Source of the DNA: Escherichia phage F2
Length of the DNA: 64,000 nucleotides
Sequence record: NC_054913.1
Direction: 5' to 3' (one strand)
A program made the position numbers and the translations under genes. The notes beneath the pieces were generated by a model. The model searched no databases. It saw only the letters and a program-made list of their open reading frames with translations, and was not told the DNA's origin. Shown here in pieces: positions 4,687-11,118 of the stretch (its first letter is position 1; every line of letters starts with the position of its first letter).

Positions 4687-5301
4687 ATGTTTAAAGTTAA
4701 TACTTTTTATAAAATGAATTTTAAAAATGGGGATATTACTCCACGCCTTAAAAACATGTTCTCATATGACCTTATCGAGCCTTTTGAAGTTTTAGAAGTT
4801 ACTGATGCCGGCTCGGTTTGTGAAATTAGAACTTCTGAAGGTAAAATTTATCAGGCAGGTGTTGGTAAATTCAGTAATTGTTTTACTTTAATATTCTCGA
4901 CCGATTTAGATGAGCATTTTATTGAATGTCCTAACCCTAAGGTCCACGAAGTTCCACATCAAGAAACTAAGAAAAATGGCCCGCACGAATATACGAAGGT
5001 TGAAACTCCTCACGGCGTGATGTGGCGTCATAACTCTCCTTTTGGAAGTAAAGGAACATTTGCTCAACCGTCTAAACCGTATGACGATGAAAAATACATC
5101 GTCGTCTTTTTATCTGAACAGGGTACTCAAGACAGTGGATGCCAACGTTCCGGTTTATTGAGTGAACTTGAAGCTCATAACCAAGCACGTGAATTCGTTG
5201 AGAAAAATCCTGGTTCTGAAGCTCTAGTCATGAAAGCAATTACTCAATATATCACTGCTCAACCTGTTGTTCATCCAGTAGAAATTAATTTCGTTAAGTA
5301 G
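4687..5301 (+). CDS. hypothetical protein (ORFan, 204 aa)
   Basis: long ORF with RBS GAGG before the ATG; no motif recognised. Confidence 0.55.
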   Translation: MFKVNTFYKMNFKNGDITPRLKNMFSYDLIEPFEVLEVTDAGSVCEIRTSEGKIYQAGVGKFSNCFTLIFSTDLDEHFIECPNPKVHEVPHQETKKNGPHEYTKVETPHGVMWRHNSPFGSKGTFAQPSKPYDDEKYIVVFLSEQGTQDSGCQRSGLLSELEAHNQAREFVEKNPGSEALVMKAITQYITAQPVVHPVEINFVK

Positions 5302-5331
5302 TTTACATCCAAGGACGGATTAGAGTATAAT
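5301..5331 (+). promoter_or_regulatory. putative early promoter
   Basis: GTTTAC at 5301-5306, TATAAT at 5326-5331; spacer 19 bp, slightly long. Confidence 0.4.
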
Positions 5332-5355
5332 GATTTCTTTAGTAAGTGGAAAAAT

Positions 5356-5553
5356 ATGAAATTTTTAATAGCACAAACAGTTCAATTAAAAGGTGTTGGA
5401 ATTCCTGGGGTGATTTTTAAAGTTCTCCCTGAATTTAAAACCGGCGCTGGAATTATCAATGAAGCGTATGCTGTTCAATGGGTTGATTGGACTTCTGACA
5501 TACGTATGGGTAAAGAGTTATCTCCTATTAAAGGGTTGAAACATGTTGAATAA
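5356..5553 (+). CDS. hypothetical small protein (65 aa)
   Basis: ORF; no motif. Confidence 0.4.
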   Translation: MKFLIAQTVQLKGVGIPGVIFKVLPEFKTGAGIINEAYAVQWVDWTSDIRMGKELSPIKGLKHVE

Positions 5554-5755
5554 ATTAATCCAGAAATTGTTTGGTACGGAAATGATCGAAGTTACTTATC
5601 GTGTAACAGACTGCTCGCCTATTCATCCACAGGATGAACCGTTTATCAAGACAATTAAAATGCTTAAAAATGACGGTGGTTTATCTATTGAAGACCGTCT
5701 GCCTAGTTACGGACATTGGGCTGATGTTGAAATTATAAGTGTTAAAGATGTCTGA
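5543..5755 (+). CDS. hypothetical small protein (70 aa)
   Basis: ORF overlapping the neighbours at both ends. Confidence 0.4.
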   Translation: MLNKLIQKLFGTEMIEVTYRVTDCSPIHPQDEPFIKTIKMLKNDGGLSIEDRLPSYGHWADVEIISVKDV

Positions 5756-6206
5756 ATTAGAAATAAGAAGCAATTTCAAATGGCCGTCATGCGCATTAAG
5801 TAATTTCGCCCAATGGCCTTTTGTTATGGATGGTATTCAATTCGGAGGACTTGAAGGATTTCTCCAAGGATGTAAGGTGAAAAATGTTGAACAACAAAGA
5901 CGTATATTTGGGCTGTCAGGACTGGCCGCACAGCAAGCTGGAAGGTCTTATGCAAGAGCTCAGGACCATGGGACTCTCTTCTGGTTAGGAGTTCCATTTT
6001 CAAGATACTCTGAAGCATGGAAAGAATTATATACAAATGCATATTTTGAAGCAGCGATCCAAAACAAGGGGTTTCGCGACGCCTTACAAGCCTCTAAAGG
6101 AAAAATTTTGAAGCACAGCATGGCCAGCCACCTAACAAAAGATGATACAATATTAACTGAAGCTGAATTTATTGATGTGTTAAACCTATTAAGAGACTCT
6201 TTATGA
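5748..6206 (+). CDS. NADAR-domain protein (YbiA-like; putative ADP-ribose or N-glycoside hydrolase)
   Basis: LSNFAQWP and DGIQFGGLEGFLQGCKV match the NADAR signature as recalled from E. coli YbiA (FSNFAAWP, DGKTWPTSEHYFQAQKF); ATG at 5748; stop overlaps next start (ATGA). Confidence 0.65.
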   Translation: MSELEIRSNFKWPSCALSNFAQWPFVMDGIQFGGLEGFLQGCKVKNVEQQRRIFGLSGLAAQQAGRSYARAQDHGTLFWLGVPFSRYSEAWKELYTNAYFEAAIQNKGFRDALQASKGKILKHSMASHLTKDDTILTEAEFIDVLNLLRDSL

Positions 6207-7018
6207 AGCCTACTATTTTGACTGATATTGATGGTGTATGTTTAAGCTGGCAATCTGGACTTCCTTATTTTGCCCAAAAATATAATCTTCCATTAGAACA
6301 TATTTTAAAAATGATTCAGGACGAAAAATTTATTTCTCCTGGTAAACTGTTCAATACCGACGATAACCTTGGTAAACAATTAATAGAAAAATATAATAGC
6401 TCTGATTTTATTCGTTACTTAGCGCCTTATTCGGATGCTCTTCGAGTTATCAATAAACTAAAAGAAGACTATAATTTTGTAGCCGTGACGGCGCTAGGTG
6501 ATTCAATTGATGCTCGATTGAATAGACAATTTAATTTGAATGCTTTGTTCCCAGGCGCTTTTTCTGAAGTAATGATGTGTGGTCATGATTCGTCAAAGGA
6601 ACAATTATTTGAACTAGCTAAAACAAAATATAACGTGATTTGTTACGTTGACGATTTAGCTCATCACTGTGACCATGCGGCAGAAATTCTTAATGTACCG
6701 ATTTATTGGTTGGCTCGTGGTGAACGTGATGATATTCCTCGCACTGCACAACGTGTACACACGTGGGATGATATTGAATCTCGTTTGGTTTCACCCGAGC
6801 ATAATTCAGATTCAGATCGTGAAGACCTTTTAAAACGATTGGCGGATTTGCTTAAAGAATCTGGTGCAACAAGTCCAGGTGCATGGCCTAATCAAATTGG
6901 CGCTCCGTCGAATCCGTATACCTGGCGAAACCAAGGACCGACTGATATGCAGCCATGGTGGACGATTCAAAACTTTCCTTTAGATTCGTCCAAATGGACT
7001 TGGTCTACAAATTGTTAA
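6203..7018 (+). CDS. HAD-superfamily phosphatase (5'(3')-deoxyribonucleotidase-like) with a Trp-rich C-terminal extension
   Basis: HAD motifs DIDGV (motif I), VAVTAL (II), conserved Lys, YVDD (IV); C-terminal ~80 aa unrelated and W-rich. Confidence 0.6.
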   Translation: MKPTILTDIDGVCLSWQSGLPYFAQKYNLPLEHILKMIQDEKFISPGKLFNTDDNLGKQLIEKYNSSDFIRYLAPYSDALRVINKLKEDYNFVAVTALGDSIDARLNRQFNLNALFPGAFSEVMMCGHDSSKEQLFELAKTKYNVICYVDDLAHHCDHAAEILNVPIYWLARGERDDIPRTAQRVHTWDDIESRLVSPEHNSDSDREDLLKRLADLLKESGATSPGAWPNQIGAPSNPYTWRNQGPTDMQPWWTIQNFPLDSSKWTWSTNC

Positions 7019-7027
7019 GGGTTAATT

Positions 7028-7297
7028 ATGTTTGTAGTTCATGATATTACAGATGGCAAAAACACCACACGTGACTACGGTCACGTTAACATGTTCTTTC
7101 GAGACTGGCCATTGTTTCGTTCAGTAAAAGACGCAGAAATATTTAAAGAGTGTGTTGAACAAGGGTTCATCTACATTTCAGAATACTATGTTGAAGGACT
7201 CGGTAAATGGATTACCACTTATCAGAAAACGCTGAAATCGCTTCTAGATGAAGTGGCTTATAATAGAACCGTAACCAAAATCGAGGACATCAAATGA
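7028..7297 (+). CDS. hypothetical protein (89 aa)
   Basis: ORF directly upstream of the ligase gene with a 4-nt overlap. Confidence 0.5.
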   Translation: MFVVHDITDGKNTTRDYGHVNMFFRDWPLFRSVKDAEIFKECVEQGFIYISEYYVEGLGKWITTYQKTLKSLLDEVAYNRTVTKIEDIK

Positions 7298-8787
7298 TTT
7301 TAGATATTTTAAACCAAATAGCTGCGATCGGTTCTACTAAAACAAAACAAGAAATCCTTAAGAAAAATAAGGACAACAAATTACTTGAACGTGTGTACCG
7401 TTTAACATATGCACGTGGTATCCAGTATTATATTAAGAAATGGCCAGGACCTGGTGAAAGGTCTCAAGCGTATGGACTTCTTGAATTAGATGACATGTTG
7501 GATTTTATTGAGTTCACATTAGCCACTCGTAAACTCACTGGTAATGCTGCAATTAAAGAGCTCATGGGTTATATCGCTGATGGTAAACCTGATGATGTAG
7601 AAGTCCTTCGTCGCGTAATGATGCGCGACCTTGAAGTAGGTGCTTCAGTGTCTATCGCGAATAAGGTGTGGCCTGGACTTATTCAATTGCAACCACAGAT
7701 GTTAGCATCTGCATATGATGAGAAATTGATTACTAAAAATATTAAATGGCCCGCATTTGCCCAATTAAAAGCAGATGGTGCTCGTTGTTTCGCTGAAGTC
7801 CGCGATGGTGGTGTTCAATTCTTTTCTCGTGCCGGTAACGAATACCATGGTCTTACTCTATTAGCGGATGAACTAATGGAAATGACTAAAGAAGCTCGTG
7901 AAAGACACCCTAATGGGGTTTTAATCGACGGTGAATTAGTTTATCATTCATTCGATATTAAAAAGGCTGTGAGCTCAGGAAATGATCTGTCGTTCTTATT
8001 TGGTGATAATGAAGAATCCGAAGAAGTACAAGTTGCAGACCGTAGCACTTCAAATGGTTTAGCAAATAAATCTCTTCAAGGGACTATTTCTCCTAAAGAA
8101 GCGGAAGGTATGGTTCTTCAAGCCTGGGACTATGTTCCTTTAGATGAAGTCTATTCTGATGGCAAAATTAAAGGTCAGAAATACGATGTTCGTTTTGCTG
8201 CTCTTGAAAATATGGCTGAAGGCTTTAAACGAATTGAACCTATCGAAAACCAGTTAGTTCGTAATCTTGACGAAGCTAAAGTGGTTTATAAAAAATATGT
8301 TGACCAAGGTCTTGAAGGTATTATCCTTAAAAACCGTGATTCATACTGGGAAAACAAACGCTCTAAGAACCTAATTAAATTTAAAGAAGTTATTGATATC
8401 GCTTTAGAAGTTGTAGGATACTATGAACACTCTAAAGACCCTAACAAATTAGGTGGTGTCGAACTCGTATCACGTTGTCGTCGTATTACAACCGATTGTG
8501 GTTCAGGGTTTAAAGATACAACTCATAAAACAGTTGATGGTGTAAAGGTTCTTATTCCTTTAGATGAGCGTCATGATTTGGACCGTGAACGATTAATGAC
8601 CGAAGCTCGTGAAGGTAAATTGATTGGACGTATTGCTGATTGTGAATGCAATGGTTGGGTTCATTCTAAAGGACGTGAAGGCACTGTAGGTATTTTCCTT
8701 CCAATTATTAAAGGGTTCCGTTTTGATAAAACAGAAGCGGATTCGTTTGAAGACGTATTTGGACCGTGGTCCCAGACAGGTTTATAA
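7294..8787 (+). CDS. 30: ATP-dependent DNA ligase
   Basis: 497 aa; N-terminus collinear with T4 gp30 from recall (MIL.ILN.IA.IGSTK.KQ.IL.KNKDN.LL.RVYRLTY); adenylation motif KADGAR. Confidence 0.9.
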   Translation: MILDILNQIAAIGSTKTKQEILKKNKDNKLLERVYRLTYARGIQYYIKKWPGPGERSQAYGLLELDDMLDFIEFTLATRKLTGNAAIKELMGYIADGKPDDVEVLRRVMMRDLEVGASVSIANKVWPGLIQLQPQMLASAYDEKLITKNIKWPAFAQLKADGARCFAEVRDGGVQFFSRAGNEYHGLTLLADELMEMTKEARERHPNGVLIDGELVYHSFDIKKAVSSGNDLSFLFGDNEESEEVQVADRSTSNGLANKSLQGTISPKEAEGMVLQAWDYVPLDEVYSDGKIKGQKYDVRFAALENMAEGFKRIEPIENQLVRNLDEAKVVYKKYVDQGLEGIILKNRDSYWENKRSKNLIKFKEVIDIALEVVGYYEHSKDPNKLGGVELVSRCRRITTDCGSGFKDTTHKTVDGVKVLIPLDERHDLDRERLMTEAREGKLIGRIADCECNGWVHSKGREGTVGIFLPIIKGFRFDKTEADSFEDVFGPWSQTGL

Positions 8788-9030: not shown

Positions 9031-11118
9031 ATGTCTGAACAATTAAATGAAGTGTTTGAATCTGAAGGCAGTCTTCCTGTCGTCAATTTGAACCCTAAAG
9101 CTAAAGTTCCACAAGTCTGGAAAATTGGTGATATCGATACAAACATCGTAGTTCGCTTATTCTCTTACCTTTCTGAAGGCGATGCTGTAAAACAAGTTAA
9201 ACTTGGCGACAAATACGCTCATGTTGTTATTATGAGTCTGTCTGAAAAGGGTAATCTCGCTGAATTGAAAAATGGCCTTGGTCCTGCTCCTATTGATGCA
9301 ATCAACACCATTTTCAATACGGTATATGAACAGGTTAAAGCTCTTCGTATGGATGCAGTTCTGTTCCGGTTCCCTACCAAGAAATTGAAAGGACGTGGAC
9401 AACAGCTTCAAACTCTTCTTGCTCGTTTAGTTTCTACTAAAACTGGCGGTCGTTTTAAAGTATTGTCAGCAATGTATCAATTCACAGGTAAACACACCTA
9501 TGTGATGATGGTTCGTAAAAATGCCAACATTGAAGATATTAAAGGCATCCCTAACATTAACACAGAGTTGTACACGAAAGTAGATTCTGATGTTGGCGAA
9601 GTTTATGTGAGTAAAAAGACTGGTGAAATGGTCACCAAAGAAGCGGCTATCGCTGGTTCTATTGCTGCTGTAGAAGAAAAACGTAAAGATAAGCCTGTTA
9701 TTGCTCGTACTAAAATTTCTCGTCGTGCTATTGCAGCAAGTCAATCTTTAGAAGCTGACCGCCAAGAAGGTGAGTTATTCCAGAAATACGAAAATTCTGC
9801 TAAAGAAGTTAGTGGCCCAGCTACAGCCGAATTACTTCCTGAAGCATATGAAATCGTACTAGCCCAAGCATCGTCCACAGCAAAAGGCACTTTAGTTGCT
9901 GATATCGAAAATAAGATTTATAATCGTATTGATGAATCCTTTAGATTTGCTGATGAAGTTTCTTATGGTAGTGTTATTAAGCCAACTTTAGAAAAGTTTG
10001 CTAAGAAAATTAAAACTGAAAAAACAACATCTGTTAAAGCATTAGCTGCTTTTGTTGAAGCTGCAAATGAAATTGCAGACTCTATTAAAGACGAATGGTT
10101 TGAAGATTTTAGACGTGATAATTTCCAACTGGCCGACGACGTTTTAGCTGAAGTATCTGAAAAAACTTGGAAACAACGTAAATCAGCGTTCTTGTCTAAT
10201 GTGATGTATACTTATGCACGAGAATCGGCTAGAGGCACCTTTAATATAACAATGAATCGGGACCCTAAACAATACTCTGTTGCTGAAAAACGAGCTATTC
10301 GTGAATATGCCTCTTCTGCGTATACCGATATCAATAATATGTTGTTAGGTCGTTATAAACCAGATTTTTACGATGTTGCAGATGAAGATGAAGTTAAACG
10401 CGCTATTGATGGTCTTGATTCGGCGTTTTTAAATGGAGACCGTTTACCTGAAGGACTAACGTTATATAGAGCCCAGTCTATCAGAATGCCTATTTACGAA
10501 GCAATGGTTAAAAATAAGGTATTCTACTTCAGAAACTATGTTTCCACTTCACTAGCTCCTATTATTTTCGGTGGGTTTAAAGAGAACGTTGCCCTTGGAC
10601 TTGCTCCTGAAGAAGTTCGCAAAGAGCTTAACATTGACAATAATGACGAAGGTGTTACTATTTCTCCTAGTCAAGTAAGAACAGCTATGCATGCACCAGA
10701 CCAAATCCGTGTTAACGTTGGATGGGCTATTGATGGCGCCCATAAAGTTAACGTGATTTATCCTGGACAGTTGAGTAATCACCCTAATGAGCAAGAAATT
10801 ATTTTGCCTAGAGGCATTCTCTTGCAGATAAATAAAATTACGGATGCGTCATCTGACACTGGTGCAGGTTTAGAATCCAACCTTAAATTTATTCAAGCTG
10901 AAGTCATGTCCTCAGACCAGTTGGACGAAGTTGTCATTTACGATGGTGATGTTCTCATGGAAACAGGCGAGGTGGTTGCTATGACTGGTGAAATCGAATC
11001 AGATGAGCCGATATCGTTCTCCTCATTTGTAGAAAAAACTAGTGCTCCTAAAGGATTGAAATTGTTAGCATCTTTAATGGATTTAGAATCAGTTCCGTTT
11101 AAATTTGTCCAAGGATAG
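9031..11118 (+). CDS. alt: Alt-type ADP-ribosyltransferase (capsid-packaged, modifies host RNA polymerase)
   Basis: 695 aa versus T4 Alt 682; position between gene 30 and gene 54; ART motifs YRAQS (Arg), YVSTSLA (STS), QEIILPRG (catalytic Glu region). Confidence 0.75.
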   Translation: MSEQLNEVFESEGSLPVVNLNPKAKVPQVWKIGDIDTNIVVRLFSYLSEGDAVKQVKLGDKYAHVVIMSLSEKGNLAELKNGLGPAPIDAINTIFNTVYEQVKALRMDAVLFRFPTKKLKGRGQQLQTLLARLVSTKTGGRFKVLSAMYQFTGKHTYVMMVRKNANIEDIKGIPNINTELYTKVDSDVGEVYVSKKTGEMVTKEAAIAGSIAAVEEKRKDKPVIARTKISRRAIAASQSLEADRQEGELFQKYENSAKEVSGPATAELLPEAYEIVLAQASSTAKGTLVADIENKIYNRIDESFRFADEVSYGSVIKPTLEKFAKKIKTEKTTSVKALAAFVEAANEIADSIKDEWFEDFRRDNFQLADDVLAEVSEKTWKQRKSAFLSNVMYTYARESARGTFNITMNRDPKQYSVAEKRAIREYASSAYTDINNMLLGRYKPDFYDVADEDEVKRAIDGLDSAFLNGDRLPEGLTLYRAQSIRMPIYEAMVKNKVFYFRNYVSTSLAPIIFGGFKENVALGLAPEEVRKELNIDNNDEGVTISPSQVRTAMHAPDQIRVNVGWAIDGAHKVNVIYPGQLSNHPNEQEIILPRGILLQINKITDASSDTGAGLESNLKFIQAEVMSSDQLDEVVIYDGDVLMETGEVVAMTGEIESDEPISFSSFVEKTSAPKGLKLLASLMDLESVPFKFVQG

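Follow-up and report, generated by a model that had tools for sequence, protein, structure and literature searches.

An intact adfN gene beside a gene for a HAD-fold hydrolase in Escherichia phage F2: probably independent members of the T-even 30.x cluster

The locus described here raises the question whether a NADAR-type gene and the HAD-type phosphatase gene whose start overlaps its stop serve a common purpose in Escherichia phage F2 (NC_054913.1), of which a stretch of 64,000 nucleotides, hereafter the window, was analysed. The original prediction, made from the letters alone, was that the two are translationally coupled and could be an anti-defence or salvage module, one that seemed to be missing from the T4 reference gene set. 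In our reading, to which we assign a probability of roughly 85%, the NADAR gene (ORF1, gene 30.3 or adfN) and the HAD phosphatase gene (ORF2, gene 30.2) are independent genes of a conserved T-even early/middle cluster and do not make up a two-part module. Both open reading frames (5748-6206, 152 aa, and 6203-7018, 271 aa) and the motifs quoted for them were recovered exactly where they had been placed, and nucleotides 6203-6206 do read ATGA. Judged by their sequences both are real genes, and chance reading frames can be excluded since ORF1 matches PF08010 with E=4e-69, ORF2 matches phrog_420 with E=1.8e-78, and both have homologues by the hundreds.

Over the region from 5300 to 7400 the identity is about 99% to Escherichia phages vB_EcoM_JQD51 and ZQ3 and about 97.7% to JS09, and to the right of position 6221 the identity to RB69 is 97-100%, which marks the window as belonging to an RB69-like (Mosigvirus-type) T-even phage. 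The order of the genes is that of T4, namely 30.8, 30.7 and so forth to 30.4, 30.3, 30.2, 30.1, 30 (ligase), alt.1 and alt, and the features considered here are collected in Table 1. A GTG at 5739 offers an alternative start for adfN that would give a product of 155 aa instead of the 152 aa read from the ATG. The best sigma-70-like site is located in the intergenic gap that precedes the string running from 5356 through 30.4, 30.3, 30.2 and 30.1 to 30, and it should be mentioned that the total number of promoter-like sites across the region shows no excess over the shuffled expectation.

Table 1. Features of the adfN-30.2 locus and its surroundings (positions in the window; aa, residues of the protein)
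Feature	Position	Strand	Basis or remark
Best sigma-70-like site, TTTACA-18-TATAAT	5302..5331	+	11/12 consensus match only
Gene 30.4 homologue; overlaps the adfN start by 8 nt	5543..5755	+	49% identity to T4 gp30.4; phrog_2042
adfN (gene 30.3), NADAR-superfamily DNA ADP-ribosylglycohydrolase, 152 aa	5748..6206	+	PF08010 E=4e-69; T4 gp30.3 146/152
ATGA, TGA stop of 30.3 overlapping ATG start of 30.2	6203..6206	+	direct sequence reading
Gene 30.2, HAD-superfamily hydrolase, 271 aa	6203..7018	+	motifs, fold model
gp30.2 HAD core with C1-type helical cap	aa 1-~196
gp30.2 helical linker	aa ~188-219
gp30.2 C-terminal tail, Trp/Pro-rich, disordered, fast-evolving	6878..7015 (aa 226-271)	+	pLDDT <50
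Gene 30.1 (DUF3045)	7028..7297	+	PF11243 E=1.4e-26
Gene 30, ATP-dependent DNA ligase, downstream of the HAD gene	7294..8787	+	PF01068 E=2.9e-26
Alt-type ADP-ribosyltransferase ORF	9031-11118		PF03496 E=6e-28; 41% identity to T4 Alt

The identity of ORF1 is readily established, as it matches the family 'Bacteriophage protein GP30.3' (PF08010, Phage_30_3) with 231 bits against a cut-off of 36 and over the whole profile (1-138 of 138), and as it aligns without gaps and at equal length with T4 gp30.3 (96% identity), the six substitutions from the window to T4 being K11R, H74R, E89P, I120V, M124I and H128G. The assignment to the NADAR superfamily had been made from YbiA motifs, LSNFAQWP (aa 17-24) and DGIQFGGLEGFLQGCKV (aa 28-44), and it holds up. 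A single-sequence phmmer search of ORF1 against PDB sequences gave no match, and the relationship emerged only with a family profile and with a structure model; the profile finds E. coli YbiA (2b3w) with E=1.4e-3 in the motif region only, and the AF2 model, built on 33 homologues and having a pLDDT of 93.8, gives meaningful Foldseek matches in the PDB only to NADAR proteins, which occupy the top three places. These are 2b3w (E=9e-5, TM 0.66) and the Geobacter and Phytophthora NADARs 8bat and 8bau (probability 0.97-0.99). Residues E36, K43 and H123 are invariant among the 33 homologues, and H123, found in the sequence LKHSM directly after a predicted strand at 120-122, is the histidine typical of the phage proteins.

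Furthermore, the anti-DarT role that had been proposed for ORF1 is already on record for its T4 orthologue. The DarTG1 resistance of T-even phages was mapped to gene 30.3, which was consequently renamed adfN (Johannesman, Carlson & LeRoux 2024, PMC11257639), and the gene is both necessary, since T2 and T4 deletions lose about 4 logs on DarTG1, and sufficient, since its ectopic expression rescues RB69. In the same study the substitutions E36A and K43A abolished AdfN function, and purified AdfN was found to take ADP-ribose off DNA modified by DarT1, while an independent study reported that phage gp30.3 hydrolyses ADP-ribosyl-guanosine in vitro and that the last strand of phage NADARs contains a histidine in place of the Glu or Asp of other NADARs (PMC11125620). 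In the published mechanism, DarT1 ADP-ribosylates guanines of the replicating phage DNA and thereby blocks replication, and AdfN hydrolyses the N-glycosidic bond that joins ADP-ribose to guanine by means of E36 and K43, the last strand contributing the phage-type H123, whereupon phage replication is restored. That the NADAR gene is AdfN, and that the pair is found in the T4 reference genome, was thus known before the present analysis.

What the window adds is a comparison with a close relative. RB69 is sensitive to DarTG1 owing to the insertion of a T at nucleotide 411, which truncates its copy of 30.3 (PMC11257639), and a three-way DNA alignment confirmed the extra T in RB69 and its absence from adfN of the window, the C-terminus of which is intact with 152 aa as in T4, whereas the RB69 copy is without the last 15 aa. 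The residues E36, K43 and H123 and the position within the series 30.4-30.3-30.2-30.1-30 are likewise common to the window gene and T4 adfN, although the host phage of the latter is a Tequatrovirus and the window phage resembles RB69. ORF1 therefore looks like an intact and functional adfN, given that the NADAR fold and these three residues are kept and the RB69 frameshift is absent, and we infer that the copy in the window is active. With its adfN intact, the window phage would, unlike RB69, be predicted to resist DarTG1 and to plate on hosts that carry it, so that this counter-defence gene seems to vary even among close relatives.

It may be asked how ORF1 relates to the NADAR antitoxins associated with DarT1. 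With these and with YbiA (8bat, 8bau and 2b3w) it has in common the NADAR fold (TM 0.54-0.66) and the N-terminal SNF...EG/H..Q..K motif, but sequence identity to the three structures is only 15-18%, and the residue in the last strand is His in ORF1 and the phage NADARs, Asp in the DarG1 type and Glu in the YbiA type. Activity on ADP-ribosyl-guanine has been published for phage gp30.3 and DarT1-associated NADARs alike (PMC11125620), but outside infection phage gp30.3, unlike the DarG1-type antitoxins, fails to neutralise DarT1 (PMC11125620, PMC11257639). Nor is there a DarT toxin gene beside ORF1, its neighbours being 30.4 and 30.2 and the sole nearby ADP-ribosyltransferase being Alt at a distance of 2.8 kb. 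ORF1 is thus an orphan antitoxin-like gene outside the DarTG1 toxin-antitoxin arrangement.

The notion that ORF1 is instead an N-glycosidase of riboflavin intermediates like YbiA, or a hydrolase of soluble ADP-ribose signals, stems from the fact that E. coli YbiA is the PDB entry it matches best, by structure as well as by profile, and it could further appeal to Iyer et al. (2022), who argued for soluble ADP-ribose derivatives as the targets of most phage NADARs. We nevertheless regard it as exceedingly improbable, since the T4 protein of 96% identity removes ADP-ribose from DNA and is required specifically against DarTG1 (PMC11257639, PMC11125620), and since the last strand of ORF1 has the histidine and not the glutamate of the YbiA type.

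For ORF2 the assignment as a HAD protein is likewise upheld by motifs and fold, but not by any curated profile. The four motifs DIDGV (8-12), VAVTAL (93-98), K132 and YVDD (148-151) are well conserved in an alignment of 37 homologues, in which D8, D10 and G11 of motif I, the motif that supplies the nucleophile and the general acid/base Asp of HAD phosphatases, and K132 are invariant, T96 of motif II is replaced by S in a few members, and D150-D151 is kept in at least 90%. The ORF2 model has the Rossmannoid HAD fold, and Foldseek with this model returned HAD enzymes with a probability of 1.0, headed by 5'(3')-deoxyribonucleotidases (2jao with E=3e-8, followed by 3bwv, 2i7d and 1q92). None of the curated HAD profiles however reached its cut-off on ORF2 (HAD_2 16.0 bits against 23.8, TIGR01428 12.8 against 125), the other family members likewise stayed below threshold, searches against PDB sequences and NCBIfam gave sub-threshold matches only, and the sole match among PDB sequences, the cdN structure 2jao, is a weak one (E=0.18-0.24) in which DIDGVCLSW is aligned with NMDGVLADF. 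The NT5C family PF06941 does not match ORF2 itself, but 5 of the 37 family members match it weakly (best E=2.9e-3), and a distant relative (L075), recovered by the gp30.2 profile with E=2e-24, matches it over the full length with E=4e-5 and 24.0 bits, the cut-off being 24.8. The neighbourhoods of the most distant relatives, L075 and L078, contained only an AAA ATPase and a holin-like protein and were uninformative. All this points to a HAD-fold hydrolase whose nearest relatives, as far as the model tells, are 5'(3')-deoxyribonucleotidases of the NT5C type, even though identity to the NT5C enzymes cdN and mdN (2jao, 2i7d and 1q92) and to the Staphylococcus protein 3bwv is about 17%.

The model is confident across most of residues 1-225, and the helices at 16-86 form a sizeable cap between motifs I and II. 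Beyond the enzymes of the NT5C family ORF2 has a further 75 residues of linker and disordered tail, and the last 45 residues include 6 Trp. The tail evolves fast, and it is missing, unalignable or different in many homologues. ORF2 is 98% identical to gp30.2 of RB69, tail included, and 69% identical to that of T4, where about 90% identity over the N-terminal ~195 aa contrasts with a tail of unrelated sequence; at the nucleotide level the identity to T4 is 33-44% in the tail and 74-92% in the core.

As to what gp30.2 does, the family is listed as PHROG 420 'unknown function', and a literature search on its function found no experimental report. The most likely substrate is small and nucleotide-like, e.g. 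a (deoxy)nucleoside monophosphate, and the protein would act on it as a Mg-dependent phosphatase; an activity on small phosphomonoesters is suggested since the DxD of motif I speaks for the chemistry, the cap speaks for a substrate of small size, and the nearest structures speak for a (deoxy)nucleoside monophosphate. A phage enzyme annotated as having such an activity is Dmp of T5, a deoxynucleoside-5'-monophosphatase with a DxDG motif. Dmp was considered as a relative of gp30.2 but rejected, since hhalign gave a probability of 1.4% with motif I alone aligned; Dmp furthermore matched no family in Pfam, and it may at most be called a functional analogue of the predicted gp30.2 activity.

We may now return to the question whether the two genes form a unit. 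The alternative reading is that of a two-enzyme anti-defence or ADP-ribose salvage module, in which gp30.2 would process ADP-ribose, ADP-ribose-1''-phosphate or ribose-5-phosphate after AdfN has acted, or would aid AdfN in vivo. At first sight the gene arrangement lends itself to this, since the pair, which had seemed to be missing from the T4 reference genome, occurs there as 30.3 and 30.2 and likewise overlaps by 4 nt, and the overlap (gap -4) is also kept in the 14 closest viral loci. Its presence in T4 means that the pair has not been newly acquired. In the homologous stretch of T4, however, the identical 4-nt overlap is found at 9 of 29 consecutive same-strand junctions and an overlap of any kind at 16 of 29. 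The ATGA is accordingly an expression of the compact packing typical of the cluster and no sign of a shared pathway, although it may serve to equalise translation of 30.3 and 30.2. Moreover, the frameshift in RB69 breaks the overlap, and yet 30.2 of RB69 is still intact.

Linkage across phages leads to the same answer. Among 75 informative viral loci with a gp30.2 homologue, 18 have a NADAR gene that adjoins the HAD gene, another 18 have one 21-1600 nt upstream of it, and 39 have none within about 4 kb; the distance is 65-70 kb in the Aeromonas phages 44RR2.8t and AS-zj. It does speak for the module that the NADAR gene, wherever it is near the HAD gene, invariably precedes it in the same orientation, and that the two families have nearly identical distributions, being found in 1509 (NADAR) and 1438 (HAD) phage records with matching genus and host counts. 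Taken alone this distribution is compatible with a looser functional tie, but in the light of the linkage data the two families co-occur as inherited genes of the Straboviridae and not as a linked unit.

The most direct evidence comes from published transposon sequencing of T4 (HIDEN-SEQ, bioRxiv 10.1101/2025.11.20.689424, Data S6), which covers one DarTG1 system in one host in rich medium. On the DarTG1 host, insertions in 30.3 vanish (log2FC -7.25, padj 0), whereas those in 30.2 are not depleted (log2FC -0.12, p 0.61, 71 sites). The mild depletion of 30.4 (log2FC -1.79, padj 0.014) is probably a polar effect on 30.3. Gene 30.2 of T4 is moreover non-essential on K-12, with insertions at 72 of 72 sites, and neutral in M9 compared with LB (-0.10), and T4 30.2 is thus, by published data, dispensable for growth and for evasion of DarTG1. 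It could still be held in favour of a partnership that AdfN needs the context of a T-even infection, being active there but inactive in uninfected cells, for T5 and for Bas25, a dependence that the authors ascribe to hydroxymethylcytosine DNA (PMC11257639) and that a phage cofactor could also explain. Since insertions in 30.2 are not depleted on DarTG1, gp30.2 is however excluded in T4 as the phage-specific cofactor of AdfN. The observation that ectopic AdfN alone restores the plating of RB69 points the same way, though it is a weaker argument as RB69 has a 30.2 of its own. A two-enzyme module directed against DarTG1 is therefore largely refuted already, and in its wider form we consider the module quite improbable. 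A weaker variant, in which gp30.2 would help AdfN with forms of DarT that differ from the one screened, is unlikely too.

An ADP-ribosyltransferase downstream of the pair had also been predicted, and the Alt-type ORF in Table 1 is indeed there, but the accompanying idea of a writer and an eraser encoded by the same genome fares less well. T4 Alt ADP-ribosylates proteins, and the substrate of AdfN is ADP-ribosyl-guanine in DNA. Given that the substrates differ, and that insertions in T4 alt are neutral on the DarTG1 host (log2FC -0.01; bioRxiv 10.1101/2025.11.20.689424), the pairing of Alt with AdfN was rejected.

If gp30.2 is tied to any neighbour, this would rather be the DNA ligase, since 71 of 77 viral loci have the ligase gene downstream of the HAD gene in the same orientation, often at a distance of 0-300 nt. 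The HAD gene keeps this neighbour much more faithfully than the NADAR gene, which could suggest that gp30.2 is a phosphatase that heals nucleic acid ends, e.g. a DNA 3'-phosphatase preparing nicks for the ligase, with the tail docking to replication or repair proteins. HAD-type DNA 3'-phosphatases do exist, the phosphatase domain of T4 PseT/PNK being an example, and so the reading is not without precedent. The predicted helical cap is however sizeable and suited to small molecules, and in the 2006 HAD classification of Burroughs et al. such caps are reportedly associated with small-molecule over macromolecular substrates. In addition, the structures that match best are those of nucleotidases and of phosphatases acting on small molecules, with PNK-type domains not among them, T4 already encodes PseT, 30.2 is fully dispensable while the ligase is essential, and the adjacency of the HAD and ligase genes may be plain inherited synteny. 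A function in end healing is for these reasons unlikely in our view. Somewhat less doubtful, but still speculative, is the broader proposal that gp30.2 is a phosphatase of the Straboviridae that partners the ligase and 'cleans' nicks or nucleotide pools under particular conditions, which could include a further defence system, a nucleotide pool that is damaged or modified, or a different host, with the tail as a lineage-specific docking element. Under the preferred reading of independent genes, gp30.2 belongs to a family of HAD phosphatases that is widely conserved among phages, with members in about 1,400 records, and its stable position beside the DNA ligase makes it a reasonable, if modest, target for biochemistry.

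The gp30.2-type HAD gene has its stable partner in the DNA ligase gene (window 6203-8787 for the two together), since in 71 of the 77 viral loci carrying a gp30.2 homologue (L002-L079) the ligase gene lies downstream on the same strand, frequently at a gap of 0-300 nt, and a NADAR gene is found near the HAD gene in only 36.

Nucleotide identity to T4 rises to 85-92% in an island (window 5722-6321) made up of the counter-defence gene adfN and the initial ~120 nt of gene 30.2, whereas the flanking genes are 45-79% identical to T4. The protein comparison agrees with this nucleotide island, AdfN being 96% identical to its T4 counterpart as opposed to 49% for gp30.4 and 41% for Alt. Nucleotide identity to RB69 is 90-96% within adfN versus 97-100% to the right of it, and left of position 5722 it drops to 78% or less. 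Judged from these identity profiles, the borders of the island look like mosaic or recombination junctions. The ORF immediately upstream of the cluster, which is located where identity of the window to both RB69 and T4 collapses, has a small PHROG as its sole match, gave no match in a Pfam search and has no counterpart in the T4 gene order; it is likely a variable insert.

Features located in this part of the analysis
Feature	Sequence	Coordinates	Remarks
204-aa ORF upstream of cluster	window	4687-5301	phrog_17531, E=4e-145
Counterpart of T4-annotated internal ORF 30.3'	window	5884-6111	+1 frame inside adfN; stop codon after 34 codons
gp30.2 relative, 193 aa	L075	3989-4570	25% identity to gp30.2

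The early stop codon in its frame means that 30.3' is not conserved as an ORF here. Among the ORF1 homologues, many T-even relatives have truncated gp30.3 products of 83-126 aa (e.g. P0103-P0107, P0112 and P0113) and others have chimeric products also matching Pfam PF11097, PF06919 and PF06019, which suggests that natural disruption of adfN, of which RB69 is one case, is frequent.

As for gp30.2 itself, many homologues including that of T4 share a short C-terminal motif, G-x-G-IEYLxxQPT (alignment A1, columns ~340-360), which may be a linear docking motif; the tail of the window and RB69 proteins is without it. The distant relative in L075, a non-T4-like 64-kb viral contig, reaches 24.0 bits against Pfam NT5C, just under the cut-off of 24.8 bits, and on sequence grounds is a putative bridge between the gp30.2 family and the deoxyribonucleotidases.
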